A stretch of DNA of 64,000 bases. Source: Chiloscyllium plagiosum (taxonomy: Eukaryota). The notes under the pieces were generated by a model. That model had not been told where the DNA came from, searched no databases, and worked only from the letters and a program-made list of their open reading frames with translations. Positions 8,101 through 52,050 of this stretch are shown one piece after another. Positions within the stretch are counted from its first letter, which is position 1, and each line of letters starts with the position of its first letter. Both the position numbers and the translations under genes were made by a program. The stretch covers positions 9,171,412 to 9,235,411 of the forward strand of contig NC_057746.1 in the NCBI RefSeq assembly GCF_004010195.1. Reading direction: 5' to 3'.

Positions 8101-8124
8101 TTAGAGACACAGAGAGGCTTCACT

Positions 8125-10947: not shown

Positions 10948-11029
10948 GTGAGTGTCTAATCTCAGTGTGCATCTGGGTTTTGTTGCCTGCATCCAGCAAT
11001 GAATGATTAATTCAATCCCATTTTAACAG

Positions 11030-13775: not shown

Positions 13776-13838
13776 ACTATATTTTCCTAACCATTTTGGT
13801 GTAGATTACTTAACGTGATGTATTTGCTGTTTTTGCAG

Positions 13839-27080: not shown

Positions 27081-27298
27081 ATGAAATACTGGATTGCCTG
27101 GATGGGTGTAACTCCAACAGCACTTGATTAGCAGCACACCCACCATTCTCAGCTTTCACTGGCTTCACCATTATGTACAACACTAACAGTGTGTAAGCCC
27201 CTTCCAAACCCACAATCACTTCCATCTCGTTGGACATGAGTGCCACCTGCAAATTCCCTCCACCCCACAGACCATCTTGACTTGGAAATCTATCATCA

Positions 27299-27688: not shown

Positions 27689-28789
27689 CATTCCTTCAGT
27701 GTCACTGGGTTAAAATCCTGGAACTCCTTCTGAAACCACATTGCAGATCTACCTGCAGCACATGGACTGCAGCAGCTCAAGAAGGCAGCTCACCACCGCC
27801 TTTTCCAAGTCGTTTCAGGATAGGAAGTAAATTCTGGCCAAGCCGAGGATGTGATCAAAAACGAATAAATACTGTCTTGTCAAAATCACTTCTGATATTG
27901 ATAGTAATTAAGTCAGCTTTATAGTTGAAATTAAAATCTTACAGGTATATTCACCCACCTCATCTCTTTTTCCTGTGATGATTTTGTCTTACCTAATTCA
28001 GGTATGCAGCCTTATCCTAAGGCAATAAAAACAGAAAACACTCAAAAAGCTCAGCAGGTCAGGAGGGTGATGGAATACTCCCTTCTTGCCTGGATGGGGG
28101 CATCTCCATCAACACTCAAAGAGCTTGACACCATCCAGGACAAAGCAGCCCGCTTGATTGGCTCCACATCCACAAGCGTCCGTTCCCTTCACCACCGATG
28201 CTCAGGAGCAGTAGTGTGTACTATTCACAAAATTTAACCAAAGATCCTTAGACAACACCTTCCAAACCCATGACCACTTCCATCAAGGACAAAGGCAACA
28301 GATACACGGGAACAACACCACCTTCAAGTTCTCCTCCAAGCCACTCACCATCCTGACTTGGAAATGTATCGGCGTTCCTTCACTGTCTCTGGGTCAGAAT
28401 CCTGGAATTCCCTCTCTAAGGTCATTGTGGGTCACCCCACAGCAGGTGGACTGCTGCGGTTCAAGATGGCAGCTCACCACTAGCTTCTGAAGGGCAATTA
28501 GGGATGGGTAATAAATGGTGGCCCCAGCCAGCGATGCCCACATCCCACAAGATGAAGACATTATAAAAAAGCCAGGCAGCAACTGTGGAATTTTACCAGC
28601 ACTTTCTTCATTATCAGCTGTCCACCATCTGCAGTGTTATCCTGACCCAGTGAAAGCCCTTCATCAGGCTTCTCATTCTCTGCTGCCTCTTCCCAAATTA
28701 TAAAAGCTAGTGTCTCCTTGTGCCTGACTGGGTTGTGGTATAAAAGTAGAGATTACAATAGTTGACGGTGAGATCTGATTTCATTCCAG

Positions 28790-28885
28790 AATGAACTGAA
28801 AGAGCTCTTGAGTTCCGAGGACGACGACATGAAAATGATCAGCAAATTAAAACAAAAGCAGGCGAAGGAGATTTCAAAACTGGAT
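28790..28885 (+). CDS. TRIM gene B, coding exon 2 (96 bp)
   Basis: ttccag|AATGAA...CTGGAT|gtgagt; NELKELLSSEDDDMKMISKLKQKQAKEISKLD. Confidence 0.92.
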
Positions 28886-28964
28886 GTGAGTATTACTTCA
28901 GCTCCCTTTAGGCACAGCAATCCATGAACAACCCACCGTTTGAACCATTCTCTCACTGTCGTAG

Positions 28965-29195
28965 CAATTCACAGCATCCCTGGAGGAAGACATCTCCGCA
29001 AAGTTTGCCAAGATTCACCAATATCTCAAAGACAAGGAGAAGCAGTCAATTAATCGGCTGAGGAGACGAAAGGAGGAAGACCAGCGACGATTGGAAGAGA
29101 ATTTGAAACAAATAGAAGAGGTTGCTGCACTTTTTGAAACCCTTATGAGTTTTGTTGCGGACAATGAGCAGAATACTGGCATCTCCTTTCTCAAG
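28965..29195 (+). CDS. TRIM gene B, coding exon 3 (231 bp)
   Basis: cgtag|CAATTC...CTCAAG|gtgatt; QFTASLEEDISAKFAKIHQYLKDKEKQSINRLRRRKEED...GISFLK. Confidence 0.93.
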
Positions 29196-29544
29196 GTGAT
29201 TTTTTTATATATACAGACCAATCTCCAAGCTTTTAGTCCAGTGTACTATTTTACAGCCCCATCACAACATTTGGCAAAGAGGGGTTAGTCAGGACTGGGC
29301 TTGATGTGCAGTGGGTGGGGGGAATGTTCCACACTGTCGATGTCTCGTTTTACTCACAGTGCAGCTGGAACCTGAGTAAAGGTGAATTACGGAGCCTCTT
29401 GCAGGTCCCTGATGTGATTTCAATGTTCGTAAAGGAATGAGGGGCTGAAGGTAGGCACTGACACTGAGAAACCAGCCCACATCTTCAAACGCATACTTGT
29501 TGTGTTGGCTTCTCCCAGTTTGACAGCAATATATAGTCATTGAT

Positions 29545-30221
29545 CCCTACAGTACAGAAACAGGCCTTTCAGCCCAACACTGACTCTCCAAAGATTAAGC
29601 CACCCAGACCCATTCCCCTACCCTATTGCTCTACATTTCCCCTGCACTGGGCGGCACAGTAGCTCAGTGGTTAGCATTGCTGCCTCATGGCACCAGGGAT
29701 CTGGGTTCGATTCCAGCCTCGGGCAACTGTCTGTGTGGAGTTTGCACATTTTCCCCGTGTCTGTGTGGGTTTCCTCTGGGTGCTCCAGTTTCCTCCCACA
29801 GTCCAAACATGTGCAGGTTAGGTCAATTGGCCATGCTAAATTGTCCATAGTGTTCAAGGATGTGTAGGTTAGATGCATTAATCGGGGTAAATGTAGAATA
29901 ATGGGGTGGAGGAGTGGGTCTGGGTGGGTTGCTGTTCGAGGGTCAGTGTGGACTTGTTGGGCTGAAGGGCCTGTTTCCACACGGTAGGGATTCTATGACT
30001 AATGCACCTAACTTACACATCCCTGAACACTATGGACAATTTAACATGGCCAGTTCACCTACCCTGGACTGTGGGAGGAAACTGGGGCACCTGAAGGAAA
30101 CCCACACAGACACAGGAAGAGTATGCAAACTCCACATAGATGGTCGCCCAAGGCTGGAATCGAACCGGGGTCCCTAGTGCTGTGAGGCAGCAGTGCTAAC
30201 CACTGAGCCACCGTGCCACCC
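29545..30221. mobile_element. HE1 SINE (+, about 29649-29998) nested in an HE1 SINE (-)
   Basis: minus-strand tail at 29545-29648 and head at 30000-30221 flank a plus-strand copy. Confidence 0.85.
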
Positions 30222-30688
30222 TTGAGTGAGTGAGCCCCGTGAGTGTTAACCCTGGCAGCAGAAATGTGTTTGGATTCACGGGAGTAACGCCCGAGAGCAG
30301 TGATGTGACCGAAAGGATCAATAAATTCTCAATAAAAACATAAAGAACTACAGATACTGTGAATCAGAAACAGAAAATGCTGGTGAAGCTCAGCAGCTCT
30401 GGCAGTGTCTGTGGAGAGAGATTAGAGTTAACATTTCAGGCCAAGTGACCCTTCCTGACAACTCAGTAAATTCTCAATGTGTTCAGTAGCGGAGGAAAAC
30501 CTGTCAAGTGCACTCAGAGTTGGGGCAGGAGATGGAGTAACTGTCACATCATTGAATCAAGTCAGTGAAAATTTCACCCAAAACCCTTCGTAGTTTTCAG
30601 GAATTACTGGGTAATCATTAAGACAACAAAATACAGTTGAAACATCATTGTCTATTTGTTAAAATGCTTCTAATTCTCTCTCCTGCAG

Positions 30689-30711
30689 AAATTGGAAAGA
30701 TTGAAAGAAAA
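30689..30711 (+). CDS. TRIM gene B, coding exon 4 (23 bp)
   Basis: ctgcag|AAATTGGAAAGATTGAAAGAAAA|gtgagt. Confidence 0.9.
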
Positions 30712-30803
30712 GTGAGTATCAAATGCAAGCCCGTATACAGGTTTACACGTTGATCACAGTTTGTGCCCAGTAACAAGTGATTAAATTAATCCCATTTGAA
30801 CAG

Positions 30804-30949
30804 ATACGAGGACAAAGTGAAGGAATTGGAAATTTTCCAGGACAACAATGAGATGGAGATGGTGGAGTTTGAGAGAGAGAAGTACACAGGGTTTCAAAGT
30901 CCCTTACTGTGCGCAGTGTGGAAGGAAATGAAACCAATCATTGCTCCAG
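30804..30949 (+). CDS. TRIM gene B, coding exon 5 (146 bp)
   Basis: gaacag|ATACGAG...CTCCAG|gtaaga; YEDKVKELEIFQDNNEMEMVEFEREKYTGFQSPLLCAVWKEMKPIIAP. Confidence 0.92.
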
Positions 30950-31319
30950 GTAAGAAGCTGCAAGCAGGAAGAGAGGGGTTGAAACGAACCAGTGATGAGA
31001 CGGGGTGGGGGGAGGGAAGATATGGTCAAGCAAAGGGGGGGTGGGGGTAGGAATGTGATGTAGCACAGCAGCAACTTGAGGAATGATTGCAAAGTGTGGC
31101 GGAATGGGTCAGACTGTAGCCATGTTAAAAACAAAAGCATTAGCAGGTGAGGCCAGAAATGATTGAAAAGAGAAGGAAATGGGTTTGAGGCCCTGTACCT
31201 GAATGTACGCAGCATTCATAACAAAAAGGATCAACTGTTAACATCGATGGAGATGAATATGTATGACCTGATATGCATTACAGTGACATGGGTGACTGCG
31301 TGAGAGGAAAGAGAGGAGG

Positions 31320-32995
31320 CCACTTGGCCCTTTGACCCAGCTCTTTCTTCCAATAAGATCAGCTTTTAACCTCAGCTCCACGCTCCTGCATGTCTCTGAT
31401 AATCTTGCGTCCCCTTGGTAATCAAGAATCTACCTACTTGTACCTTGGAAATGTTTAACGATTCTGCATCCATTGCCTTTTGTGGAAGGGAATTCCATAG
31501 ACTGTATCCTTTGAGGAAAGAAATGATCCATACTCATACCTGCCTTAAATAGGCGACCCGTTATGATCCTTAATTCTAGATTCTACCACAAGAGAAACAG
31601 ACCCTTCGGTCCAACTCATCCGTGCTGACCAGATATCCAAAATTAATCTCATCCAATTTGCCAGCATTTGGCCCATATCCTTCCAAGCCCTTCCTATTCA
31701 TATACCCATCTAAAATCCTTTTAAATGTTGCAATTGTAAGGCCTCCACCACTTCCTCTGGCAGCTCATTCCACACATTACCCTGTCCATGAAAAGGTTGC
31801 CCCTTTAGTCTCTTTTAAATCTCACCTTAAAGCTACGCTCTCTAGTTTTGGACTCCCCTGTGCTGGGGAAAAGACCTTGGCTTTACACCCTATCCATGCC
31901 TCTCACGTTTTTATAAACTTCTACAAGAGGAATCAGTCTGGTAAACCTTCACTGCACTCCATCCATAACCAGAACATCTTTCCTCAGGTAAGGAGACCAA
32001 AACTGCACACAGTATTCCAGGTGTGGTCTCACCAATGCCCTGTTTAATTGCAGAAAGATATCCCTGCTCCTGTACTCAGATCCTCTCACTCTGAAGGCCA
32101 ACATACTATATGCCTTCTTGACTCCCTGTTGCTCCTGCATGCTTACATTAAGTGACTGGTGTATGAGGACACTCAGGCCTCTCTTAATTTATAACCATTC
32201 AGCTAATAATCCATCTTCCCATTTCCCAAAGTGGATAACCTCACATTTATCCAACTTCATATTGCATCAGCAATGTGTTTGCTCACTCACCCAACCTGTC
32301 CAAATCACGGTTCGGCATCTCCGCATCCATCTCGCAGCCTTGTGTCATCTGCAAATCTGGGGCTATAACATTTAGTTTGCTCATATAAATCATTAATTTA
32401 TATTGTGAATAGCTAGAGCCCTGACACTGATCCCTGCTGTATCCCACAATTCGTGCCTGCCATTCGGAAAAAGACCTGTCTCTTTCTACATGAAAACTGA
32501 AAGAGCTGTGGACGCTGGAAATCAGAAACAAAAACAGAAACTGCTGGAAAAGCTGAGGAAGCCTCACTCGACCTGAAACGTTAACTCTACACAGATGCTG
32601 CCAGTTGAAACTTTATTGCTGGAACAGCACAGCAGGTTAGGCAGCATCCAGGGAACAGGAGATTCGACGTTTCGGGCACAGGCCCTTCTTCAGGATGCTG
32701 CCAGACCTGCTAAGCTTTTCCAGCAATCTCTGTTTTTGTTCCTGTTTATTTCTACTCTCTGTTCCCTCTTCATTTCAATACACTACCCCAATCCCATGAA
32801 CTTCAATTTTACACACTAGTCTCGTACGTGGGACCTTACCAAAAGCCTTTCAAAAGTCCAAATAAACCACATCCACTGGCTCCCCCTCATCAACTGTATG
32901 AGGTGTGTCCTTGAAGAATTCCAGTAGATTTGTCAAACATGATTTCACTTTTGTAAATCCATGCTGACTCTGTTCAATTCTGCCGCTATTTGCTG
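31320..32995 (-). mobile_element. Stack of minus-strand CR1 fragments
   Basis: ALVRPHLEYCVQFWSPYLRKD; DFxKAFGKVPH; SQHGF remnants. Confidence 0.8.
32666..32693 (-). ncRNA. Minimal hammerhead ribozyme-like core (second terminal-repeat family)
   Basis: CUGAAGA-A-GGGC(CUGU)GCCC-GAAACGUC; palindromic ACGU stem III; GUC cleavage triplet. Confidence 0.6.
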
Positions 32996-33032
32996 AGTAA
33001 AACTTAACATAATGTGTTTTAATTTTCCCTAG

Positions 33033-33577
33033 ATGCTATCTCCCTGACCCTGGACTCAAACACAGCACATCCAGGCCTCATTCTGTCTGAAGACCGAACC
33101 AGTGTGAGATATAGTAGCAAACAATTACAGCTTCCTAATAATCCGGAGAGATTCGACACGGCTCCGTATGTCCTGGGATTGCAGGGATTCACTTCCGGGA
33201 AACATTACTGGGAAGTGGAGGTCAAGGACAAGGCTGAGTGGGAAGTGGGAGTGGTCAGAAAGTCAGCCAGTCGGAAGGGAAAGATAACACTAGATCCTAA
33301 AACTGGATACTGGATTGTGTTGCTGAAAAATGGGAATGAATACAGAGCCAGTCAAAGTCCATTAGTCCCCCTGAGTCCGAGTGTGAAACCCAGGACCATT
33401 GGAGTTTACCTGGACTATGAGGGAGGGCTGGTGAGCTTTTACAATGCTGATGACATGTCTGTACTCTACACGTTCACTGACACATTCACCGAGAAACTCT
33501 TTCCTTTATTCTCTCCTGGAGTGTACAAAGCAGGTACAAATGTTGCCCCTCTTAAACTCCATCATTTCGGACCATAG
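33033..33577 (+). CDS. TRIM gene B, last coding exon (PRY/SPRY); joined CDS 1464 nt, 487 aa
   Basis: ccctag|ATGCTATC; [42 protein letters not shown]; TAG stop; exon phases sum to one intact frame. Confidence 0.96.
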
Positions 33578-34156
33578 ATCTCTAAATTCTTGTCAGAGCA
33601 AGAAGGGATAGAGTGCTGATATTGACCCCCAATAAGGTGAGAGAGGAGTAATATGGCCATTTTATGAAATGTGATCTGTGGAGTGAAGTAGAGAGTAGCT
33701 AAGTGTAGCTCAGCAACAAGAGCTTCCCCAGCACTGCCTATGAGCCATGGAAGCAGGAATTAAGCCTCGTCCCAAATCCTCCTTCCCCTTCAAGCAAGAT
33801 GCTGTGGCTAAATCACTACAAGTTACCTTTAGTTTGGCTACTTATTAAGAAATCTCTCAGATGGTTAAGTATGAAATGAATGATTTAAACATTATTGCAT
33901 GTAGCAGCCAAAAAAGACCCCTCAGGGAGGCAAGTTAAGCTTCACAACTCAACAGGGCTATTATCAAAACTGAAGTGAGGAGGAGTTTCTTCTCTCAAGA
34001 GGGTTGTGAGTCTTTGCACCTCCTTCCCACAGAAAGCTGTGGGGGTAGAGTCCTTGTGTATATTCAAGACTGAGACAGCTAAATTCTTGATCAGCAGAGG
34101 AATCAAAGGTTTATAGGGTAAAGGCAGGAAAGTAGATGTTCGGAATGTCAGACAGG

Positions 34157-34593
34157 TATGGAAACCACTTTGAGGACCCTGACCATGCTGTCCTCTGAGG
34201 TAACCGTTTTTTAGCAGAGTTGTTTTCTAACTGAAGTCGTTTACAAGAATTCTTTTGCTGATCTTGCAGTTGTATCCTCTCACCCACTCTCTCTATATGG
34301 GAGCTCTGTTAGAACCGCACCACTAGTTATCTGCTACTAACTTCTGCTAACAGTATGCTACGTCACAGCCTAATGTTGTTAGACCACCTCATGTTGTTAG
34401 ACATACATTGTTCTGTAACTAACAGTAGGTCATTTGTAATCCTATATAACCTGTGAGACCCTGTAGCTTGGCGGAGAGGTCGTGGTGTTGAGTGGTCACT
34501 GCTCTCTTCCCGTGATATCATGAATAAATGTGTCAATTACTCAAGGCCTGCACATGAGATTTAATCAGCAAGAAACAGAAAACTGCTACAACA
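34157..34593 (+). mobile_element. Putative solo LTR (437 bp) inserted into a CR1 3' end
   Basis: TA...CA ends (5' TG decayed); TSD-like ACAGG/ATAGG; TATATAA at 34443; AATAAA at 34523; the CR1 3' UTR is continuous across it. Confidence 0.65.
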
Positions 34594-37019
34594 ATAGGCC
34601 ATCATCTATTGAAGCAAGCTCAAGGGGCTGAATGGCCTCCTCCTGTTCCAATTTCTCATGGTCGGAAGGTCTTGCAAAGAGGCCAGAGGTGGTATTTTCC
34701 GATGCTTTCGTGCTGTGGATTATCTAAGTCTCTGAAACATGTAGGAACCCAGGATTCACTACTGCCCATTCAACAATGACCTCAGTCTCAGGTTTGAGAT
34801 GTTGGTTGCTGATGTTTTTAACGAGAGCATGGTCTCTGGACTGTGCCTCCCTGTCAATGCTTCCAATTGATTGCTTTTTTGAAAGGCCATTCAGGGGTGT
34901 TATTACACACCTCTGGAGCAAGTGGACTGGCCTTCTGCATCACAAACGCCCTCTCTTTGGTGTACTCTTTAGAAGTATTATAACTATAGGCAGGACAGAC
35001 TGCAGCAATGTGAGGACCTGATTACCCTAGCTGATATCCCAGCATCGCTACTAGGCAATCTGAGCCATTAATGTTCAAATCATAGAATCCCTTCAGCATG
35101 GAAGCAGGCCATTTGCCCATCAAGTCCACACCGATCATCTGAAGTGCATCCCACCCTTACCCAACCCCTCTGTAAGCCTGCATTTCCCATGTCCGATCCA
35201 CCTAACCTGCACATCCCTAAACACTATGGGGCAACTTAGCATGGCCATTCTCACAACTGAACTTATTGCATCTCATACTAATAAAGCTGCTCTACCATCT
35301 TTTCATCCTTGCCTATCCTTTCAAAATGTCATATATGTAGTTCTCAACTTTATATAAATATCCTCTGTATTAGCTACAAGAGCATACCATTAATTCATTC
35401 ATATGGCTTCTAATATGACACGATTTAAGTAAAGAGTCATTACTTTTGCCTTTTCCGCCCTTTGACTCTGTTTGCTAATTTTATATGCTCATACACTGGG
35501 CCCCAGGCCTGACACAGAATGAAACCAAAATGGATTCTCAAGGGATACAAACAGGTAACACATCCATCTTAACAGAGGTGACAATGGTAAAAAGACACTG
35601 ACTATGTCATACCATACAGACTTCCTTTGGCAGAGAATTGAAAGAGGAATAGTATTTTAAATAAAAGAATATTCTACCTCTCCTCCCAACCAAACCTGTC
35701 TTCCCTTTTAATAGACAACTAATGGTGTACAAAGGCACAGCATTTGCAAATCTGTCTTTGCTTGCCTATTATATACATATTTAATGTGCAAAGATTATAT
35801 ACACATTGGAAGTTCTGCTTTTTGACTATGATTTGAAGTATTAAATTGTGAAAAAAACGCTGAGGCGTTTCCGAATATGTATAGCAAGCAATAAGAAATA
35901 TACAGCAAGTGATTGCATTTACCAGTACCATGCCTATTTCATTCTAAGACAGCATTGTTTTCCATTGTTTTAATAAGTGACACTTTTTCTTCATAAAATC
36001 ACATCTGACATTTTTTGGCAAAAAGCCGATAGGTTGATAATAAGTGCATTTGTAGAGGGGAGCTTTCTCCTAGTTTTATCAGTATTTGGGGGGGGGGGGG
36101 GGGTTAAATCTGACGAATCCAGTTCACTCCTGATGTAACTGCAACCCTGCAGTGAAAGTTATTTCTCTGCATCACAGAGCCTCTATTGGAAACAGGGGCG
36201 CTGGTGATTTTTAGCCCACCAAGACTGGTTTACAAAGTAAGCATCTCTGAAAGGTACCAGAAGGCGTATTAAAAATGTTCCCAATTTTTTTAAAAAGGAT
36301 TTAATTTGTTAAGAAACGGACTGGGATACACCTTTGAAAGCAGTGCATGGTTCGGTTTTGGATTCCATGTTATTTTCAGAGTTTTAACATTCAGAAAATG
36401 GAGGGACACACTTCAACAGCTCCAATTTAGTTCCCAGCCCGAGCACACATTGAGAGGACAACTTAGACCCATCCTTGAAGTAGACTTTAGATCATAGAAC
36501 ATTACAGCGCAGTACAAGCCCTCAATGTTGCACTGACCTGTGATACCAATCTGAAGGCCATCTAACCTACACTACTGAGTGCATAAAATTCCCAGGATAG
36601 TACATGATCCAAGGGGATGACAGTCAGAGAGTAGGGAGCTGGAATCGGGAGTAGACCCAATCTAAATTCAGTCACAGGGTTGTTAAAGTGGTATATTAAT
36701 GCAGAGTCACACAAACCTAACACAGAGAGAGCACAGATTTAAGATGTGAGTTCTGGTGGAAGATCCTGCATGTGGAACATTAAAGCTATTTTTACTCAGT
36801 GCAGTTGCTGCCTGGCTTGTTTTCCTGTTTTGATCTCAGATATCCAGCTTCTGCACTGGAAATACAAGGAGGTCTGGTGAGAGGAATGGGATTGGGAAGC
36901 CGTGAGTGTGTAGTGGTTGGGTCTGGGAGGGAGAGGTTGCAGGAGACTTTTGAGGTCAGGTCAAGCATGATCTTTTTTTAGTTAGATACACTAAATAGTA
37001 ATGGCATGGAATCTATTCG

Positions 37020-37205
37020 CTTGATTGGCTGGCTTTCTAGTTTGTGATGCTGAGTGATGCCAACAATGTGGGTTCAATTCCAGTTGAGGTTACTATGAAG
37101 GATTCTCCTTCTCAATTCTGTCTTCCCCAGAGTGTGGAGCGCATCAGGTGAAAGCACGACTGGTTGCCTATCTCTATTGAGAGAGCAGCCTTATGGGTCT
37201 GTAAT
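37020..37205 (+). mobile_element. tRNA-derived SINE (second family)
   Basis: GGGTTCAATTCC B-box; matches the reverse complement of 1195-1392. Confidence 0.6.
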
Positions 37206-38526
37206 GACCTTACAGGGCAAGACTTCACCTCTGTCACAAAGGCTGCTTGTGAGAAAATGATGGTCATGGATTAGCAAGGATTGAGATCCACAGGAAAGCA
37301 GCCTCACAGAGATGTCAACTCTCAGTGATAGCAGCCAAAGTAATGATTGCACAATGAGATATATAAATGGAACAACTGTTCCAATGTACAGATACGTCCT
37401 CGGTTTAAAGATTTGTTGCTAGAGCTTCAATCTACAGGGCGTCTAACCACAGGCAGGTCTAATGGGTTCTCCATGTCAGTGAAAGAAGATCGTAACAGCG
37501 CAAAGCCCTTGTCCAGATAGATGCTGCCCATTTTCAGACGGCTTTTCCCTCACAAGGCCCTTGTTTTGCAACCATCCCCTGCCAGTCACCTCTGCCAAAG
37601 CAGTTAATCCCCTTCCAGTGGGATGGCAAGGCTTGCAGAGGGGATGAAAAGGAAGGAAAGATATTGACACCAATTCCATCTCGATATCTACTGCGCCTCG
37701 AGAGCCTGTTCCGCTGAGTCCTTTCAGTGTGGTGCCTGAGCAACGTGGGAGATGTCAGGACACAGGGCAGAGGGGGAGCAATCTCTGAGGCACTAACAGT
37801 GAGACACACGGAGCCCAGAGATGGGCGATGTAGGGTCAGAGAGAAACCCGGGGGTGCAGCATGAGCCCAACTAAGACAAGGAAGTGACGACAGAGGGGAG
37901 AGAGAGATGTAAGGGCACTCTGGGTTAGACCATGGGGTCAATGACACTAAGACACATGCACATAACACAGGTTGAATATTCAGTTCACTTTTCATGTCCG
38001 GAATTGAAATGAATTCGCTTTATTGTCACTCAAATGAGTCCAGTGAGAAGTTTTACAGTCACTGCATTACAGCACCATCTCAGATACAAAGGCACAGATA
38101 CTCATGTTCAAATTCTTAGAAACAAAAAAAAGTTAGGAAAGTCAAGAAATAAACAGCCCATCATTATCAGTCTTCAGAATAAACCTGAAAAATAAAAAAA
38201 AGTGAGAAGTTCAGAGTATCAGTCTTTCTGACCCACTCCACGCTGGCACCAACTCACAAAGGAGACCCCCAATACCAGGCCGCCACCAATGTAGGGGTTG
38301 CCCCACTTTAGGCGCCATCTCTTCACCGCTGGGCCCACTTCGCTGACACCACAGACCCAACACTCACCCAGCAACCAAGAGTCATTGGCTCTGCTGCCGG
38401 GACAGGCCACACTCAGCATCTCACTTTAACTGCAGTTGTTGCTTTGCGGGGCTGCCATCTTGAAGAGTCCGCTGCCTCCGTCCCCGATCACTGGACAGGC
38501 TTTGCTGCCACTACTGGGCCAAAATA

Positions 38527-39300
38527 CCAGGAGGGGAACCTCACTGCTGCCCCCTGCTGGCCCTGAACACCAGGAGGGGAACCTCACTGCTGCCCCCCAC
38601 TGGCCCTGAATGCCAGGAGGGGAACCTCACTGCTGCCCCCCGCTGGCTGTGAACACCAGGAGGGGAACCTCACTGCTGCCCCCCACTGGCCCTGAATGCC
38701 AGGAGGGGAACCTCACTGCTGCCCCCCCGCTGGCCCTGAACACCAGGAGGGGAACCTCACTGCTGCGCACCGCTGGCCCCGAATGCCTGGAGGGGAACCT
38801 CACTGCTGCCCCCCGCTGGCCCTGAACACCAGGAGGGGAACCTCACTGCTGCCCCCCACTGGCCTTGAACACCAGGAGGGGAACCTCTCTGCTGCCCACC
38901 ACTGGCCCCAAATGCCTGGAGGGGAACCTCACTGCTGCCCCCGTCTGGCCGTGAACACCAGGAGGGGAACCTCACTGCTGCGCACCGCTGGCCCCGAATG
39001 CCTGGAGGGGAACCTTACTGCTGCCCCCCGCTGGCCCTGAACACCAGGAGGGGAACCTCACTGCTGCCACCCACTGGCCTTGACCACCAGGAGGGGAACC
39101 TCACTGCTGCCCCCCACTAGCCCCAAATGCCTGGAGGGGAACCTCTCTGCTGCCCCCTGCTGGCCCTGAACACCAGGAAGGAAACCTCACTGCTGCCCCC
39201 TGCTGGCCCTGAACACCAGGAGGGGAACCTCACTGCTGCCCCCCACGAGACCCGAATGCCTGGATGGGAACCTCACTGCTGCCCCCAGCTGGTCCCAAAT
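38527..39300. repeat. 43-bp GC-rich minisatellite, about 18 copies
   Basis: unit CCAGGAGGGGAACCTCACTGCTGCCCCCCGCTGGCCCTGAACA; starts at 38527, 38570, 38613 and onward. Confidence 0.97.
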
Positions 39301-39587
39301 GATGAGAGATTGCATTCACTGCTGCCGCCTCCGATCACCAGGGGAATATCCTCACTGCCGCCGGTTCCTCCAATCACCGGGAAGAGCCACATCTGCCACT
39401 CTGCATGTGAGCCTCCCTCGCTACCATGCGTCTGTGTGTGTGGCCAGATTGTGGCTTCTATTGATATCAAAGCAAACATTCGAAGATATGAGAGTGGTGT
39501 CTGTGAAACATTCCTTCCTCACCTTCTGTGGACTCAGTATTCTTCATGAGTTGATACCTCTGGCACATACCCACTTTACAGTGCCAG

Positions 39588-40087
39588 NNNNNNNNNNNNN
39601 NNNNNNNNNNNNNNNNNNNNNNNNNNNNNNNNNNNNNNNNNNNNNNNNNNNNNNNNNNNNNNNNNNNNNNNNNNNNNNNNNNNNNNNNNNNNNNNNNNNN
39701 NNNNNNNNNNNNNNNNNNNNNNNNNNNNNNNNNNNNNNNNNNNNNNNNNNNNNNNNNNNNNNNNNNNNNNNNNNNNNNNNNNNNNNNNNNNNNNNNNNNN
39801 NNNNNNNNNNNNNNNNNNNNNNNNNNNNNNNNNNNNNNNNNNNNNNNNNNNNNNNNNNNNNNNNNNNNNNNNNNNNNNNNNNNNNNNNNNNNNNNNNNNN
39901 NNNNNNNNNNNNNNNNNNNNNNNNNNNNNNNNNNNNNNNNNNNNNNNNNNNNNNNNNNNNNNNNNNNNNNNNNNNNNNNNNNNNNNNNNNNNNNNNNNNN
40001 NNNNNNNNNNNNNNNNNNNNNNNNNNNNNNNNNNNNNNNNNNNNNNNNNNNNNNNNNNNNNNNNNNNNNNNNNNNNNNNNNNNNNNN
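39588..40087. other. Assembly gap (other gaps at 53049-53506, 59165-59224 and about 62519-63018)
   Basis: runs of N. Confidence 1.
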
Positions 40088-43000
40088 GACAATCGGTGAG
40101 GAACCCAGGACCCCGACAATTAGTGAGGAAACCTGTATCCATGACAATCAGTTAGGAATCCTGTACCACGACACTCGTTTAGAATCCTGGACCCCTGACA
40201 ATCAGTGAGGAATCCTGTACACCGACAATTGGTGAGGAATCTTGTACCCCTGACTATCGGTTAGGAAATCTGTACCCATGACAATCAATGAGGAATCCTA
40301 TACCCCGACAATCGGTTAGGAATCCTGTACCCCTTACAATAAGTAATGAATCCTGTACCGCTACAATCGGTGAGGAATCCTGTACGACTTCAATCAGTGA
40401 GGAATCCTGTACCTCAACAATCATTTAGGAATCCTGTACCCCTGACAGTAGGGAATGAATCCTGTACCGCTACAATCGGTGAGGAATCCTGTACCCCGAC
40501 AATCGGTGAGGAATCGTGTATGCCTGACAATTAGTGAGGAACCCAGGACCACAACAATCAGTGAGGAATCGTGTACCCCTGACAATTGGTAAGGAATCCT
40601 GTACACCTGACAATTAGTGAGGAATCCAGAACCCCTGACAAACAGTGAGAATTCCTGAACCCCTGACAATCGGTTAGGAATCCTGCACCTCGACAATCAG
40701 TGAGGAAATCTGTACCCCGAGTATCGGTTAGGAATTCTGTATCCCTGAAAATCGATTAAGAAACCTATACCCCAACAATGGGTGAAGAATCCTGTACTAC
40801 TGTTAATCGGTTAAAAATCCTGACCCCCTGCAAATAAGTTAGGAATCGTGTACCCCGACAATCGGTTAGGAATCCTGTACCCCGACAACTGTTTAGGAAT
40901 TCTGAACCCCAACAATCGCTGAGTAATCCTGTACCCCGACAATCGGTGAGTAATCCTGTACCCTGACAATCAGTGAGGAATCCTGTACCCCAACAATCGG
41001 TGAGGAATTCTGTACCCATAACAATCTGTGAGGAATCCTGAACCCCTGACAATCGGTTAGAAATCCTGTACCCCGACAATCGGTGAGGAATCCTGTACTC
41101 CATCAATCGGTGAGGAACCCTGTACCCTGACAATCAGTGAGGAACCCAGAACCCCCCGACAATCAGTGAGGAAACCTGTACTCCTGACAATCAGTTAGGA
41201 ATCCTGTACCACGACAATCGTATAGAATCCTGGACCCCTGACAATTGGTGAGGAATCCTGTAGCCCGGCAATCATTTAGGAATCCTGTACCCCTGACAAT
41301 AGGTCATGAATCCTGTACCCTGACAATCAGTGAGGAATCCTGTACCCCTGACAATCAGTGAGGAATCCTGTACCCCGACAATCGGTGAGGAATCCAGAAC
41401 CCCTGACAATCGGTGAGGAATCCTGTACACCGACAATCGGTGAGGAATCCTGTACCCCGACAATCAGTGAGGAATCCTGTACCCCAGACAATCGGTAAGG
41501 AATCCTGTACCCCTGACAATCAGTGAGGAATCCAGAACCCCTGAAAATCAGTGAGGAATCATGTAACCCTGACAATCGGTTAGGAATCCTGCACCTCGAC
41601 AATCGGTGAGGAAATCTGTACCCCGATTATCGGTGAAGAATCCTGTATACTGTCAATTGGTGAGGAATCCTGTACCCCTGACAATTGGTTAGGAATCCTG
41701 TATCCCTGGCAATTGGTTCGGAATCCTGTATCCCTGACAATCAGTTAGGAATCCTGTACCACGACAATCGGTAAGGAAACCTGTATCCCTGACAATCGGT
41801 GAGAAATCATTTAGGAATCCTGTACTCCTTACAATTGGTAATTAATCCTGTACCACTACAATTGGTAAGGAATCCTGTACCCCAACAATCAGTGAGTAAT
41901 CCTGTACCCCTGACAATCAGTTAGGAACCCAGGACCCCGACAATCGGTGAGGAATCCTGTACCCCGACAATCGGTGAGGAATCCTGTACCCCGACAATCG
42001 GTGAGGAATCCAGAACCCCTGACAATCGGTGAGGAATCCTGTACCCCGACAATCAGTGAGAAAACCTGTACCCCTGACAATCGGTTAGGAATCCAGAACC
42101 CCTGACAATCGGTTAGGAATCCTGCACCTCGACAATCGGTGAGGAAATCTGTACCCCGATTATCGGTTAGGAATTCTGTATCCCTGAAAATCGATTAAGA
42201 AACCTGTATCCCGACAATCGGTGAAGAATCCTATACCACTGAAAATCGGTTAAAAATCCTGTGCCCCTGTAAATAGGTTAGGAATCCTGTACCCCGACAA
42301 TCGGTGAGGAATCCTGTATCCCATCAATTGGTGAGGAATCCTGTACCACTGACAATTGGTTAGGAATCCTGTACCCTGACAATCGATTAGGAATCCTGTA
42401 CCCCTGACAATCAGTTAGGAATCCTGTGCCCCTGACAACCATTTAGGAAACCTGTACCCCTGATACTAAGTTAGTAATCCTGTACTCTGCCAATCAACAT
42501 GGATTTAGTAAAGGGAGGTCATGCCTGACAAACCTGTTGGAATTTTTTGAAGAGGTAACAAGTAGGTTAGACCAGGGAAACCCAGTGGATGTGGTCTATC
42601 TATATTAACGATTTGGATGAGGGAACCGGGGGCATTCTAGCGAATTTTGCCGATGATACGAAGTTAGGTGGACAGGTAGGTAGTACTGAGGAAGTGGGGA
42701 GGCTACAGAAGGATCTAGACCGGTTGGGAGAGTGGTCCAGGAAATGGCTGATGGAATTTAACGTGCGCAAGTGCGAGGTCTTGCACTTTGGCAAGAAGAA
42801 TGAAAGCATAGCCTAGTTTCTAAATGGTGGGGAAATTAATAAAGCCAAAGCACAAAGGGATCTGGGAGTGCTAGTCGAGGATTCTCTAAAGGTAAACATG
42901 CAGGTTGAGTCCGTGATTAAGAAAGCGAATGCAATGTTGTCTCTTATCTCAAGAGGGTTGGAATATAAAAGCAGAGATGTACTACTAAGACTTTATAAAG

Positions 43001-46000
43001 CTCTGGTTAGGCCCCATTTGGAGTACTGTGTCCAGTTTTGGTCCCCACACCTCAGGAAGGACATACTGGCACTGGAACGTGTCCAGCGGAGATTCACACG
43101 GATGATCCCTGTAATGACAGGTCTAACATATGAGGAACGGCTGAGGATACTGGGATTGTATTCGTTGGAGTTTAGAAGATTAAGTGGAGACTTAATAGAG
43201 ACGTACAAAATAATACATGGCTTGGAAAAGGTGGATGCTAGGAAATTGTTTCAGTTAAACGAGGAGACTAGGACCCGTGGACACAGCCTTAGAATTAGAG
43301 GGGGTCATTTCAGAACAGACATGCGGAGACATTTCTTCAGCCAGAGAGTGGTGGGCCTGTGGAATTCATTGCCACGGAGTGCAGTGGAAGCTGGGACGCT
43401 AAATGTCTTCAAGGCCGAGATTGATAGATTCTTGTTGTCTCGAGGAATTAAGGGCTACGGGGAGAACGCTGGTAAGTGGAGCTGAAATGCGCATCAGCCA
43501 TGATTGAATGGCGGAGTGGACTTGATGGGCCGAATGGCCTTACTTCCACTCCTATGTCTTATGGTCTTATGGTCTTATGTTTAGGAATCCTGTACCTCTG
43601 ACAATTGGTAAGGAATCCTATACCCCGACAATCGGTTATGAATCCTGTACCCAGAACAATCGGGGAGGAATCCTGTATCCCTGACAATCGGTTAGGAATC
43701 TTGTACATCTGACAATAGCTGAGGAATCCTGTACCCCGACAATCATTTAGTAATCCTGTACCCCCAATAATAGGTTAGCATTCCTGTACCCCTGACAATA
43801 GGTTATAAATCCTGTACCCCAATAATCGGTTAGTAATCCAGTACCCTGACAAACGGTGAGGAATAGTGTACCCCTGACAATCAGTGAGGAATCGTGTAAC
43901 CCAACATTCGTTAGTAATCCGGTACCCCTGTCAATAGATTAGGAAACCTGGACCCCAACAATCGGTGAGGAATCCTGTACCCCTGACAATTGGTTAGGAA
44001 TCCTGTACCCCGACAATCAGTGAGGAATCCTGTGCCCCTGACAATTGGTTAGGAATCCTGTACCCCGACAATCAGTGAGGAATCCTGTACCCCTGACAAT
44101 TAGTTAGGAATCCTGTACCCCTGACAATCAGTGAGGAATCCTGTGCCACTGACAATCATTGAGGAACCCTGTAACCCCGACAATCGGTGACACATCCTGT
44201 ACCCCTGTCAATAGATTAGAAAACCTGTACCCCAACAATCGGTTAGGAATCCTGTACCCCTGATAATCGATTAGGAATCCTGTACCCCTGACAATCTGTA
44301 AGGATCCTGTACCCCGACAATCGGTTAGGAATCCTGTACCCCGACAATAGGTGAGGAATCCTGTACCCCTGACAATCATTTAGGAATCCTGTACCCTTGT
44401 AAATCAGTTTGGAATCCTGTATCCTGACAATCTATGAGGAATCCTGTACCCTGAAAATCAATGAGGAATCCTGAATCCCTGATAATAGATTAGGAATCCT
44501 ATACCCCGACAATCAGATAGTAATCCTGTATCCTTGACAATTGGTGACGTATCCTGTGCCCCTGTCAATAGGCGAGGAATCCTGTACACCTGTCAATATG
44601 TTAGGAATCCTGTACCCCAACAATCGGTTAGTAATCCTGTACCCTGACAATCGGTGAGGAATAGTGTACGCCTGACAATCGGTGAGGAATAGTATAACCC
44701 TGTTGATAGGGTTGGAATCCTGTACCCTGACAATCGGTTAGGAATCCTGTACCCCTGACAATCAGTTAGTAATCCTGTACCCCCGATAATAGGTTCGGAA
44801 ACCTGTACCCCGACAATCGGATAGTAATCCTCTACCCTGGCAATCGGTGAGGAATCCTGTATCTCGACAAACAGTGAGGAATCCTGTACCCCTGACAATC
44901 GGTTAGGAATCCTGTACCCCTGACAATCAGTTAGTAATCCTGTACCCCCGATAATAGGTTCGGAAACCTGTACCCCGACAATCGGATAGTAATCCTCTAC
45001 CCTGGCAATCGGTTAGGAATCCTGTATCTCGACAATCAGTGAGGAATCCTGTACTCCTGACAATCGGTTAGGAATCCTGTACCCCTGACAATCAGTTAGT
45101 AATCCTGTACCCCCGATAATAGGTTCGGAAACCTGTACCCCGACAATCGGATAGTAATCCTGTACCCTGAAAACCGGTTAGGAATCATGTACCCCTGAAA
45201 ATCGGTTAGGAATCCTGTACCCCTGACAATCAGTGGGAAATCCTGTACCCCTGACAATTGATTAGGAAATCTGTACCACGCCAATGGGCTAGGAATCCTG
45301 TACCCCAAAAAGTGGTTAGGAATCCTGTACCTCTGACAGTCATTTAGGAATCCTGTGGCCCGGCAATCAGTGAGGAATCGTGTACCCCTGACACTCTGTG
45401 AGGAATCCTGTAACACCGACAACCGGTGACGCATCCTGTACCCCTGAAAATCGGTGAGGAATCTGCACTCCCGACAATCGGTGAGGAGTCCTGTAACCCC
45501 GACAAACGGTTAGGAATTCTGTACCCCTGTCAATAGGTTAGGAATCCTGTACCCCGACAATCAGTGAGGAATCCTGTACCCCTGACAATCGGTTAAGAAT
45601 CCTGTACCCCTGACAATAGGTTAGGAATCCTGTACCCCGACATTCAGTAAGGAATCCTGTAACCATGACAATTGGTTAGGAATCCTGTACCGCGACAATG
45701 GGCTAGGAATCCTGTACCCTGAAAACCGGTTAGGAATCCTGTACCTCTGACAGTCGGTTAGGAATCCTGTATCCCTGACAATTGGTTAGGAAACCTGTAC
45801 CCCGACAATCGGCGAGGAATTCTGTACCCTGACAATCGGTGAGGAATCCTGTACCCCTTACAATTGATTAGGAATCCTGTACCCCTGACAATCGGTAAGG
45901 AATGCTGTACTCCAACAATCGGTGAGGAATCCTGTACCCTGACAATCAGTTAGTAATCCTGTGCCCCTGACAATCGGCTAGTAATCCTGTAACCCTGACA

Positions 46001-49000
46001 ATAGGTTAGGAATCCTGTACCCCTGACTATCAGTTAGGAATCCTGCACCCCTAACAATCGGTGAGGAATCCTGTACCCCAAAAATCGGTCAGGAATCCTG
46101 TGCCTCTGACAGTCAGTTAGGAATACTGTACCCCTGACAATTGGTTAGGAAACCTGCACCCCGACATTCGGTGAGGAATTCTGTACCCCGGCAATCGGTG
46201 AGGAATGCTGTATCCCAACGATCGGTGAGGAATCCTGTACCTCTGACAATCAGAAAGGAATCCTGTACCCATGACAAATGGTTAGGAATCCTGTACCGCG
46301 ACAATGGGCTTGGAATACTGTACCCTGAAAACCGGTTAGGAATCCTGTACTTCTGACAGTCAGTTAGGAATCCTGTACCCCTGACAATTGGTTAGGAAAC
46401 CTGTACCCCGACAATCGGCGAGGAATTCTGTACCCCGACAATCGGTGAGGAATGCTGTACCCCAACAATCGGTGAGGAATCCTGTACCCTGACAATCAGT
46501 TAGAAATCCTGTGCCCCTGACAATCGGCTAGTAATCCTGTACTCCTGTCAATAGGTTAGGAAACCTGTACACCAACAATCGGTGAGGAATCCTGTATCCC
46601 TGACAATCGGTTAGGAATCCTGAACCCATGACAATCAGTGAGGAATCCTGGACCCCAAAAATCGGTTAGGAATCCTGTACCTCTGACAGTCGGTTAGGAA
46701 TCCTGTACCCCTGACAATCAGTTAGGAATCCTATACCCCTGACAATCGGTGAGGAATCCCATACCGCTGACAATCGGTGAGGAATCCTGCACCCCATACA
46801 ATTGGTGAGGAATCCTGCAACCCCACCAATCAGTTTGGAATCCTGTACCCCTGTCAATAGGTTAGGAATCCTGTACCCCTGTCAATAGGTTAGGAACCCT
46901 GGACCCCAACAATCAGTAAGGAATCCGGTACCCCCGATAATAGGTTAGTAATCCTGTACCCCTGACAATAGGTTAGGAATCCTGTACCCCAACAATCGGT
47001 TAGTAATCCTGTACCGTGACAATCGGTGAGGAATAGTGTACCCCTGACAATCGGTGAGGAATAGTGTAACCCTGTCGATAGGGTAGGAATCCTGTACCCT
47101 GACAATCGGTTAGGAATCCTGTACCCCTGACAATAGGTTAGGAATTCTGTACCCCAACAATCGGTTAGTAATCCTGTACCCTGACAATCGGTGAGGAATA
47201 GTGTACCCTTGACAATCGGTGAGGAATAGTGCAACCCTGTCGAGAGGGTAGGATTCCTGTACCCTGACAATCGGTTAGGAATCCTGTACCCCTGATAATC
47301 AGTTAGTAATCCTGTACCCCCGATAATTGGTTCAGAAACCTGTACCCCGACAATCGGATAGTAATCCTGTACCCTGGCAATCGGTTAGGAATCCTGTACC
47401 CCTGACAATCGGTGAGGAATCCTATACTCCTGACAATCGGTGAGGAATCCCATACCGCTGACAATAGGTTAGGAATCCTGTACCCCATACAATTGGTGAG
47501 GAATCCTGCAACCCCACCAATCAGTTTGGAATCCTGTACCCCTGTCAATAGGTTAGGAATCCCATACCCCTGTCAATAGGTTAGGAACCCTGGAACCCAA
47601 CAATCGGTAAGGAATCCGGTACCCCCGATAATAGGTTAGTAATCCTGTACCCCTGACAATAGGTTAGGAATCCTGTACCCTGACAATCGGTTAGTAATCC
47701 TGTACCCCTGACAATCGGTTAGTAATCCTGTACCCTGACAATCGGTGAGGAATAGTGTACCCCTGACAATCGGTGATGAATAGTGTAACCTTGTCGATAG
47801 GGTAGGAATCCTGTACCCTGACAATTGGTTAGGAATCCTGTACCCCTGACAATCACTTAGTAATCCTGTACCCCCGATAATAGGTTCAGAAACCTGTACC
47901 CCTGACAATCGGATAGTAATCCTGTACCCTGGCAATCGGTGAGGAATCCTGTACCCCTGAAAATCGGTTAGGAATCCTGTACCCCCGACAATCGGATAGT
48001 AATCCTGTACCCCTGACAATTGATTAGGAAACCTGTACCACGCCAATGGGCTAAGAATCCTGTACCCCAAAAAGTGGTTAGTAATCCTGTACCTCTGACA
48101 GTCATTTAGGAATCCTGTGGCCCGACAATCAGTGAGGAATCGTGTTCCCCTGACAATCAGTGAGGAATCCTGTACCCCTGACAATCGGTGAGGAATCGTG
48201 TACCCCTGACAATCAGTGAGGAATCTTGTACCCCTGACAATCAGTGAGGAATCCTGTGCCACTGACAATCATTGAGGAACCCTGTAACCACTCCCGACAA
48301 TCGGTGAGGAGTCCTGTAACCCCGACAATCGGTTAGGAATTCTGTACCCCTGTCAATGGGTTAGGAATCCTGTACCCTGACAATCGGTTAGGAATCCTGT
48401 ACCCCTGACAATAGGTTAGGAATCCTGTACACTCACATTCAGTAAGGAATCCTGTACCAATGACAATTGGTTAGGAATTCTGTACTGTGACAATGGGCTA
48501 CGAATCCTGTATCCTGAAAACCGGTTAGGAATCCTGTACCTCTGACAATTGGTTAGGTAACCTGTACCCCTGACAATCGGTGAGGAATCCTGTACCCTGA
48601 CAATCGGTTTAGGAATCCTGTACCCTGACAATTGGTTAGGAATCCTGTACCCCTGACAATCTGTAAGGAATCCTGTACCCCCGATAATAGGTTCGGAAAC
48701 CTGTACCCCGACAATCGGATAGTAATCCTGTACCCCTGACAATTGATTAGGAAACCTGTACCACGCCAATGGGCTAGGACGACAATCAGTGAGGAATGCT
48801 GTACCCCAACAATCGGTGAGGAATCCTGTACCCTGACAATCAGTTAGTAATCCAGTGCCCTGACAATCGGCTAGTAATTCTGTACCTTTGTCAATAGGTT
48901 AGGAAACCTGTACCCCAACAAACGGTGAGGAATCCTGTACCCCTGACAATCGGTTAGGAATCCTGTACCCCTGTCAATGGGTTAGGAATCCTGTACCCCA

Positions 49001-50064
49001 ACAAACGGTTAGGAATCCTGTACCCCTGACAATCGGTTAGGAATCCTGTGCCCCTGTCAATTGATTAGGAATCCTGTACCTCTGTCAATGGGATAGGAAT
49101 CCTGTACTCCCGACAATTGGTGAGGAGTCCTGTAACTCTGACAACCGGTGACGCATCCTGTGCCCCTGTCAATAGGTTAGGAATCCTGTGCCCCTGTCAA
49201 TTGATTAGGAATCCTGTACCTCTGTCAATGGGATAGGAATCCTGTACCCCGACAATCGGTGAGGAATCCTGTACCCCTGACAATCGGTTAGGAATCCTGT
49301 ACCTCTGACAATAGGTTAGGAATCCAATCCCCCTGACAATTGATTAGGAATCCTGTACCCCGACAATCAGAAAAGATTCCTTGTACCCCTGACAATCGGT
49401 TAGGAATCCTGTACCTCTGACAATAGGTTAGGAATCCAGTACCCCTGACAATTGATTAGGAATCCTGTACCGCGACAATGGGCTAGGAATCCTGTACCTT
49501 TGACAATAGGTGAGGAATCCTGTACCTCTGACAGTCGGTTAGGAATCCTGTACCCCTGACAATTGGTTAGGAATCCTGTACCGTGACAATAGGCTGGAAT
49601 CCTGTACCCTGAAAACCGGTTAGGAATCCTGTACCTCTGACAGTCGGTTAGGAATCCTGTACACCTGACAATTAGTTAGGAAACCTGTACCCCTGACAAT
49701 CGGCGAGGAATTCTGTACCCTGACAATCGGTGAGGAATCCTGTACCGCGACAATGGGCTAGGAATCCTGTACCCTGAAAACCGGTTAGGAATCCTGTACC
49801 TCTGACAGTCGGTTAGGAATCCTGTACCCCTTACAATTGATTAGGAATCCTGTACCCCTGACAATCGGTGAGGAATGCTGTATTCCAACAATCGGAGAGG
49901 AATCGTGTACCCCTGACAATTGGTGAGGAATCCTGTACTCCCAACAATCGGTGAGGAATCTTGTACCCTGACAATCAGTTAGTAATCCTGTGCCCCTGAC
50001 AATCGGCTAGTAATCCTGTACCCCTGACAATACGTTAGGAATCCTGTACCCCTGACTATCAGTT
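40088..50064. repeat. 27/28-bp satellite array (about 9 kb net), interrupted by a CR1
   Basis: unit GACAATCGGT(G/T)AGGAATCCTGTACCCC(T); diverged copies with recurring variant blocks. Confidence 0.98.
42497..43579 (+). mobile_element. Relatively young CR1 LINE fragment inside the satellite, with an internal RT deletion
   Basis: QHGFSKGRSCLTNLLEFFEEVT joined at about 42600 to YINDLDEG..FADDTKLGG; open 205-aa C-terminal ORF; (TATGGTCT)n tail. Confidence 0.93.
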
Positions 50065-52050
50065 ATCAGCCCTTGATCGCGGATTGAGGATCAGCCCTTG
50101 ATCGCGGATTGAGGATCAGCCCTTGATCGCGGATTGAGGATCAGCCCTTGATCGCGGATTGAGGATCAGCCCTTGATCGCGGATTGAGGATCAGCCCTTG
50201 ATCGCGGATTGAGGATCAGCCCTTGATCGCGGATTGAGGATCAGCCCTTGATCGCGGATTGAGGATCAGCCCTTGATCGCGGATTGAGGATCAGCCCTTG
50301 ATCGCGGATTGAGGATCAGCCCTTGATCGCGGATTGAGGATCAGCCCTTGATCGCGGATTGAGGATCAGCCCTTGATCGCGGATTGAGGATCAGCCCTTG
50401 ATCGCGGATTGAGGATCAGCCCTTGATCGCGGATTGAGGATCAGCCCTTGATCGCGGATTGAGGATCAGCCCTTGATCGCGGATTGAGGATCAGCCCTTG
50501 ATCGCGGATTGAGGATCAGCCCTTGATCGCGGATTGAGGATCAGCCCTTGATCGCGGATTGAGGATCAGCCCTTGATCGCGGATTGAGGATCAGCCCTTG
50601 ATCGCGGATTGAGGATCAGCCCTTGATCGCGGATTGAGGATCAGCCCTTGATCGCGGATTGAGGATCAGCCCTTGATCGCGGATTGAGGATCAGCCCTTG
50701 ATCGCGGATTGAGGATCAGCCCTTGATCGCGGATTGAGGATCAGCCCTTGATCGCGGATTGAGGATCAGCCCTTGATCGCGGATTGAGGATCAGCCCTTG
50801 ATCGCGGATTGAGGATCAGCCCTTGATCGCGGATTGAGGATCAGCCCTTGATCGCGGATTGAGGATCAGCCCTTGATCGCGGATTGAGGATCAGCCCTTG
50901 ATCGCGGATTGAGGATCAGCCCTTGATCGCGGATTGAGGATCAGCCCTTGATCGCGGATTGAGGATCAGCCCTTGATCGCGGATTGAGGATCAGCCCTTG
51001 ATCGCGGATTGAGGATCAGCCCTTGATCGCGGATTGAGGATCAGCCCTTGATCGCGGATTGAGGATCAGCCCTTGATCGCGGATTGAGGATCAGCCCTTG
51101 ATCGCGGATTGAGGATCAGCCCTTGATCGCGGATTGAGGATCAGCCCTTGATCGCGGATTGAGGATCAGCCCTTGATCGCGGATTGAGGATCAGCCCTTG
51201 ATCGCGGATTGAGGATCAGCCCTTGATCGCGGATTGAGGATCAGCCCTTGATCGCGGATTGAGGATCAGCCCTTGATCGCGGATTGAGGATCAGCCCTTG
51301 ATCGCGGATTGAGGATCAGCCCTTGATCGCGGATTGAGGATCAGCCCTTGATCGCGGATTGAGGATCAGCCCTTGATCGCGGATTGAGGATCAGCCCTTG
51401 ATCGCGGATTGAGGATCAGCCCTTGATCGCGGATTGAGGATCAGCCCTTGATCGCGGATTGAGGATCAGCCCTTGATCGCGGATTGAGGATCAGCCCTTG
51501 ATCGCGGATTGAGGATCAGCCCTTGATCGCGGATTGAGGATCAGCCCTTGATCGCGGATTGAGGATCAGCCCTTGATCGCGGATTGAGGATCAGCCCTTG
51601 ATCGCGGATTGAGGATCAGCCCTTGATCGCGGATTGAGGATCAGCCCTTGATCGCGGATTGAGGATCAGCCCTTGATCGCGGATTGAGGATCAGCCCTTG
51701 ATCGCGGATTGAGGATCAGCCCTTGATCGCGGATTGAGGATCAGCCCTTGATCGCGGATTGAGGATCAGCCCTTGATCGCGGATTGAGGATCAGCCCTTG
51801 ATCGCGGATTGAGGATCAGCCCTTGATCGCGGATTGAGGATCAGCCCTTGATCGCGGATTGAGGATCAGCCCTTGATCGCGGATTGAGGATCAGCCCTTG
51901 ATCGCGGATTGAGGATCAGCCCTTGATCGCGGATTGAGGATCAGCCCTTGATCGCGGATTGAGGATCAGCCCTTGATCGCGGATTGAGGATCAGCCCTTG
52001 ATCGCGGATTGGGGATCAGCCCTTGATCGCGGATTGAGGATCAGCCCTTG
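50065..52050. repeat. Near-perfect 25-bp tandem array, about 79.4 copies
   Basis: unit ATCAGCCCTTGATCGCGGATTGAGG; only one variant seen (A>G at 52012). Confidence 0.99.

Follow-up and report, generated by a model that had tools for sequence, protein, structure and literature searches.

Minisatellites whose units carry a CTCF motif are a kind already known in mouse, as DXPas34, and in human, as tandem repeats bound by CTCF/BORIS. Mouse DXPas34 is the closest described case to the array that we analyse here, as both are lineage-restricted and are built from a short monomer, of 34 bp there and 43 bp here, with a CTCF motif per monomer (PMC3149622, available text). The number of DXPas34 sites is described in the same text as varying widely among rodents, with one vole having none. 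DXPas34 is, however, CpG-rich (a feature that is itself variable among rodents), sits at the promoter of Tsix and has been the subject of functional work, according to the available sections of PMC3149622, whereas our array is CpG-poor (observed/expected 0.17) and is located 5 kb beyond a stop codon. Of the traits that define the mouse system, short tandem monomers with a CTCF core are found at this locus, at p<1e-4 in 14 of the 18 units, and CpG richness is not.

In the accessible part of PMC5504073 the CTCF motif is described as common to lamprey, chicken and human, and the domain borders of the skate are reported to carry inward-facing CTCF motifs, so that the motif is in use in cartilaginous fish (PMC10115646, available text). 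Shark CTCF and CTCFL are described as having 11 fingers each, with the testis-associated CTCFL present in sharks and CTCF ChIP-seq reported for a sister species, the brownbanded bamboo shark (all in the available text of PMC7471279). A literature search, with most subscription papers outside its reach, found no published CTCF tandem array in sharks.

The array described here lies within a window of 64 kb (the whole stretch of DNA that was analysed), downstream of two TRIM genes and, in the current assembly, upstream of a large satellite. The features on which the argument depends are as follows.

6073-14380, plus strand: second TRIM gene, 3' exons, with coiled coil and PRY-SPRY
17261-33577, plus strand: TRIM gene with RING, B-box, coiled coil and PRY-SPRY
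38000-38524, minus strand: left flank of the array, terminating at about 38000-38025 with AATAAA and an imperfect tail that is short
38525-39299: minisatellite array, 18 units of 43 bp, with a minus-strand core in every intact unit
38545-38563, minus strand: full-consensus CTCF core of unit 1, 22.7 bits, p about 1e-8, without CpG
39148-39166, minus strand: full-consensus CTCF core of unit 15, from consensus and matrix scan
39191-39209, minus strand: full-consensus CTCF core of unit 16, from consensus and matrix scan
39300-39365: right edge of the array, with decayed sequence resembling the unit (about 70% over 54 columns) and no CTCF site
39588-40087, no strand: gap of exactly 500 N between the array contig and the satellite
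40088-50065, plus strand: 27/28-bp satellite in one orientation, with a LINE-like interruption at about 42495-43580
50065-52050, plus strand: 25-bp array, 79 copies, 99% identical, CpG observed/expected 1.03
62519-63018, no strand: second gap of exactly 500 N

The TRIM genes upstream of the array are immune-type genes. RING, B-box and PRY-SPRY domains were assigned by Pfam in the gene at 17261-33577, whose three main exons match Chiloscyllium plagiosum P0121 at 141/141, 77/77 and 181/181 residues, and whose exons are 91-97% identical to C. punctatum and Hemiscyllium relatives; these matches identify the window as DNA of a bamboo shark. An intron of this gene holds, on the minus strand at 25060-26700, frameshifted remnants that resemble a Penelope-type element, with reverse transcriptase and GIY-YIG-like parts recognised by eye, and a relative at 71% lies on the far side of the satellite, at 54270-55090.

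Some 5 kb separate the stop codon of this nearer TRIM gene from the beginning of the array, which spans 0.8 kb. Tandem Repeats Finder reports 17.8 copies of period 43 with 84% matches at 38526-39292, and direct counting gives 18 units, with a mean pairwise identity of 87% and 67% G+C, one of which (unit 5) has an extra base and is 44 bp long. Units 6 and 11 have the same sequence, and on average units differ least from each other at a lag of five; together these are the trace of a partial block duplication of five units. The regular period, the decayed copies at the edge and this partial five-unit duplication all point to local amplification, and there is no second copy of the unit or of its flanks within the 64-kb window. 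Exact patterns of the unit also had no match in metagenome and viral collections, where shark DNA would not be expected.

The three copies of the full CTCF core consensus that had been noticed from the sequence are confirmed: CCASYAGRKGGCRS occurs three times in the window, always on the minus strand and always inside the array, at 38547-60, 39150-63 and 39193-206, and thus in 3 of the 18 units. Each unit had also been said to read GGCCAG(C/T)(A/G)GGGGGCAGCAG, a description that holds for 8 of the 18 units and fails for the other 10, with 15 of the 18 lacking the A at core position 6. For a graded view we applied a reconstructed JASPAR MA0139.1 position matrix to the window (the totals of its columns pass evenly from 913 to 908). 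With this reconstructed matrix the MA0139 scan that had been proposed found a site at p<1e-4 in 14 of the 18 units and none in the remaining four (units 5, 6, 11 and 17, which have lost it); 12 of the 18 reach p<1e-5, a typical unit scores 17.5-18.2 bits and the three perfect units lie near 1e-8. The number of sites, given earlier as about 18, was therefore overstated and is better put at 12-14.

Of the 21 matches at p<1e-4 in the window, the array contains 15 (14 on the minus strand and one weak match on the plus strand), and 12 of the 13 sites at p<1e-5 are also within it. Elsewhere in the window a single CTCF-like site reaches p<1e-5, at 55475-55493; it is on the plus strand and faces rightward, and would therefore form a divergent pair with the array around the satellite if the join between them is true. 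The cores follow one another at the 43-bp period, leaving 24 bp between 19-bp motifs, and on the minus strand they face lower coordinates, which is the TRIM gene side; the side that a core faces is the side on which a loop forms (PMC12885311, available text). Both the likeness to CTCF sites and their common orientation toward the TRIM genes, as the sequence-only reading had it, are supported by the consensus matches, the matrix scores and the gene positions. Each unit is also an imperfect inverted repeat, so that a weak CTCF-like half-site on the plus strand opposes the minus-strand core, although this half-site attains p<1e-4 only once, at 39081-39099.

How surprising such an array is depends on what is counted. 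As the 18 copies descend from a single unit and represent one event, the right test is the chance of such a site in one 43-bp unit. In dinucleotide shuffles the observed score was reached in 0 of 5000 for unit 1, 5 of 5000 for unit 2 and 18 of 5000 for unit 7, and p<1e-5 was reached in 72, 96 and 151 of 5000 for the same three units. Among 4427 overlapping, circularised 43-mers drawn from the same window minus the array and the satellite, four attained at least 13.5 bits and none at least 16 bits. The match of the array unit thus clearly exceeds what chance would give at a single locus (about 0.1-0.4%), but a scan of many windows and many minisatellites will encounter such units.

The variation among the units suggests how their sites came to differ. 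Three dinucleotide columns, 1-2, 31-32 and 40-41, were chosen after the variation had been seen. Of their 54 cells, 51 read CG, TG or CA and only 9 are still CG, and these columns account for 37 of the 65 departures from the majority. Deamination of methylated CpG leaves just such a CG/TG/CA pattern, and CpG observed/expected is 0.17 in the array against 0.32 for 1-38000. We infer CpG decay as the cause of the unit variation, together with the mechanism of amplification set out below. Columns 31-32 fall inside the CTCF core and read CG in six units (about 18 bits), TG in three and CA in seven. C>T at column 31 adds 4.5 bits and produces the perfect consensus of three units, which has no CpG left to methylate, whereas G>A at column 32, seen in seven units, lowers the score by 0.6 bits and is near-neutral. 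With three TG units against seven CA units, the perfect copies are the rarer of the two decay products and not an enriched state. Outside the CpG columns there are 17 distinct changes, 10 of them in the 17 columns of the motif and 7 in the 20 remaining columns. Of these 17 changes 4 damage the motif, where 26% of all conceivable changes would do so (P=0.75 for a draw this mild or milder, with low power at 17 alleles). The units accordingly give no indication of selection on the motif, damaging changes not being depleted in a comparison of low power; this unit-level test is blind to selection on the whole array, and redundancy among copies would blunt selection on each of them. Selective maintenance of the array is not supported.

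The explanation that we favour, and hold to be somewhat better than an even bet, is that this is an ordinary minisatellite amplified from a CTCF-competent unit, with no selected barrier role evident. In this model, slippage and unequal exchange in place would have expanded one G+C-rich 43-bp unit, whose founder would already have held a near-consensus CTCF core with a central CpG. Germline methylation would then have led to the decay of the three CpGs of the unit, one of the two decay products at the core giving a perfect, CpG-free consensus and thereby the three ‘perfect’ copies, while other mutations would have destroyed the site in four units. The outcome would be about 12 strong core sites on the same strand, to which CTCF, and in testis also CTCFL, can probably bind via fingers 3-7; an array so bound would stall cohesin coming from the TRIM side. 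The concentration of differences in CpG-type columns and the creation of the perfect copies by C>T at column 31 both favour this model, whereas the rarity of so good a unit locally (none of 4427 at 16 bits or above), and the position of 12 of the 13 p<1e-5 sites 3' of a gene cluster, facing the genes as a loop anchor would, count against it. Judged by the motif, CTCF probably binds the array units in vitro at least, and occupancy of the array in vivo seems rather likely, with the proviso that predicted CTCF sites inside repeats can be unbound and few sites affect folding (PMC11828424, available text). A search for ChIP libraries over 29600-39587 listed none.

The 500-N gap and the roughly 12 kb of satellite (40088-52050) that had been noted to the right of the array are both present. 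Between the array and the gap lie 288 bases of non-satellite sequence, and the piece that begins with the satellite, 40088-62518, is 22.4 kb long with a 500-N gap on each side; the other gaps in the window measure 458 and 60 N. We take a fixed gap of 500 N to be a placeholder of Hi-C scaffolding, in which small repeat-rich pieces are presumably poorly placed. The satellite monomer, allowing at most 7 mismatches, occurs 115 times in 40088-52050 and not once in 1-39587. Given the two 500-N gaps and the absence of the monomer left of the gap, the adjacency of array and satellite rests on scaffolding, and a border between them is not supported.

Several further observations concern the piece beyond the gap. 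The 25-bp array at 50065-52050 joins the end of the older, diverged 28-bp satellite directly and is not CpG-depleted, so that it is either very young or unmethylated, or else an artefact of gap filling. The LINE-like insert at 42495-43580 in the 28-bp satellite holds an open frame of 222 codons without a Pfam match. A histone H3-like fragment on the minus strand at 52790-52990, with stops and drift (Pfam Histone, E 5e-10), adjoins the 458-N gap and is probably a pseudogene. Near-copies of about 600 bp at 58564-59164 and 59225-59795 (91%) flank the 60-N gap, and a pair of 310 bp lies at 61281-61589 and 61765-62072 (89%); both pairs are possibly haplotypes assembled twice. Finally, an inverted similarity between 56819-57394 and 63021-64000 (94% over 247 bp and 77% over 347 bp) reaches across the second 500-N gap and may reflect either repeat copies or misplacement of the 22-kb piece.

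The sequence-only reading had proposed that the array acts as a barrier that halts the spread of satellite heterochromatin into the TRIM genes, which we consider improbable. In the current assembly the array does stand between the TRIM genes and 12 kb of satellite, with sites whose position, orientation and number would suit the role, since insulation grows with the number of sites (PMC11828424, available text; PMC7087399). Furthermore, CTCF sites are described at the borders of H3K9me2 and H3K27me3 (PMC12885311, available text), and unit 1 resembles the site of chicken HS4. The position nevertheless depends on the 500-N joins on either side of the 22.4-kb piece, with no monomer on the array side, and the array itself bears a history of methylation, without a trace of selection on its motif (17 alleles, low power). 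The HS4 barrier, moreover, reportedly works without its CTCF site. In the available text of PMC12885311, characterised CTCF sites at insulators and barriers typically, though not obligatorily, have a further motif upstream, bound by fingers 9-11 and set 7-10 bp away from the core. This upstream motif is absent at that spacing here: at gaps of 7-10 none of the 18 units fits at more than 4 of 10 bases, against a random mean of 3.3. At a gap of 6 the fit is at most 6 of 10 bases. A look-alike matching 8 of 10 bases, 3 bp from the core in 9 of the 18 units, was rejected for its wrong spacing, and 3.5% of random places equal it over gaps 2-10. The published insulation tests used a spacing of 180 bp and omitted sites less than 60 bp apart, and tandem sites from outside boundaries did not insulate (PMC11828424, available text). 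An insulator against the satellite is thus unsupported on three counts, namely the 500-N join with no monomer on the array side, the upstream motif and selection. Equally improbable, in our judgement, is the broader idea of a young, tunable border, born inside a decayed retroelement, made methylation-proof by CpG decay and variable in copy number, that shields a fast-evolving TRIM cluster from satellite heterochromatin and has counterparts at many gene/satellite borders of cartilaginous fish. It is slightly easier, though still unlikely, to see the array as an occupied, working loop anchor for the TRIM cluster, in which leftward cores close a loop or sub-domain with a strength set by copy number, regardless of what is on the right. 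Twelve co-oriented sites at p<1e-5 face the genes, domain borders in skate have inward-facing motifs (PMC10115646, available text), the rise of insulation with site number has been seen in experiment and model (PMC11828424, available text), and in gene clusters tandem sites insulate and balance promoter use (PMC7087399). Conversely, no convergent plus-strand site at p<1e-4 exists in 1-38524, although a partner could lie outside the window, and the upstream motif missing at the 7-10 bp spacer weakens this proposal as it does the barrier.

A different origin is suggested by the left flank, whose minus-strand end of AATAAA and a short imperfect tail resembles the 3' terminus of a fish LINE and would suit a decayed non-LTR retroelement. 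Elements of the CR1 group make up 22-34% of shark and ray genomes (PMC13343379, available text); given this abundance and the LINE-like end of the flank, the array may have grown inside a decayed retroelement copy. The further reading, of the array as part of a dispersed non-LTR retroelement family with a repeated CTCF unit in its UTR and cassettes genome-wide, is improbable, even if that flank end, the repeated subunits near the 5' UTR of some CR1-group elements (PMC13343379, available text) and the spread of CTCF sites by repeats in lamprey (PMC5504073, available text) point that way. The window contains no second copy of unit or flank, no reading-frame remnant and no convincing target-site duplication, and Pfam searches of seven short frames around the array gave nothing below E 0.1. 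The published subunits are described as 1-5 copies of 100-500 bp, as opposed to 18 of 43 bp here (PMC13343379, available text), and if the flank should be a retroelement, a history in which insertion came first and amplification later would still be simpler. Least credible of all, to the point of being very improbable, is that the unit matters as a hairpin, a quadruplex or a coding repeat and not as a protein-binding site. Each unit does form an imperfect inverted repeat of -5 to -9 kcal/mol as DNA, and frames of 70-140 codons span the array. However, folding of the whole array as RNA gave z = -1.76, with 1 of 20 shuffles equally good, canonical quadruplex patterns are absent from the array, and Rfam and tRNA scans returned no matches. 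As for coding, protein searches with the plus-strand frame of the array were empty and those with the minus-strand frame retrieved nothing beyond unrelated repeat proteins, either bacterial or unnamed, that were 30-46% identical.

The ordinary minisatellite that we prefer can be set against further systems besides DXPas34. It had been likened to DXZ4, and with DXZ4/Dxz4, FIRRE and ICCE it does share a tandem array of co-oriented CTCF motifs with a proposed role as boundary or loop anchor (PMC6985041, available text). The DXZ4 unit, in contrast, is described as 3 kb long and CpG-rich, with a promoter and paired CTCF-YY1 sites, and as binding CTCF on the hypomethylated inactive X and being conserved across mammals (same text). 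The comparison fails on unit size (43 bp against 3 kb) and on CpG content (0.17 against CpG-rich), and the array is not a DXZ4-type macrosatellite. The repeat-borne CTCF sites of the Arctic lamprey, for example hAT-Tip100 family 274, resemble it as lineage-specific repeats with canonical CpG-free motifs, but are interspersed transposons with single ChIP-verified peaks (PMC5504073, available text). Compared by eye, 17 of 21 bases are shared between the core of unit 1 and the probe for chicken HS4, and the array differs from the insulator sites of IL3 and chicken HS4 in having no upstream motif at the 7-10 bp spacer (PMC12885311, available text).

As it stands, the locus is one more CTCF-motif minisatellite, with putative sites and a function that is unsupported. 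If occupied, it would provide a natural test of how CTCF sites spaced at 43 bp add up, a spacing that the modelling study omitted (PMC11828424, available text), and of whether a chromatin border of a shark is tuned by the number of copies in a minisatellite. The array would function, if at all, as a clustered CTCF site made by tandem repetition, by analogy with the clustered sites termed 2xCTS, in which several cores likewise lie within about 10-100 bp through tandem repetition (PMC4562119) and which, unlike the array, were identified by ChIP and show enrichment at promoters and enhancers, not borders.
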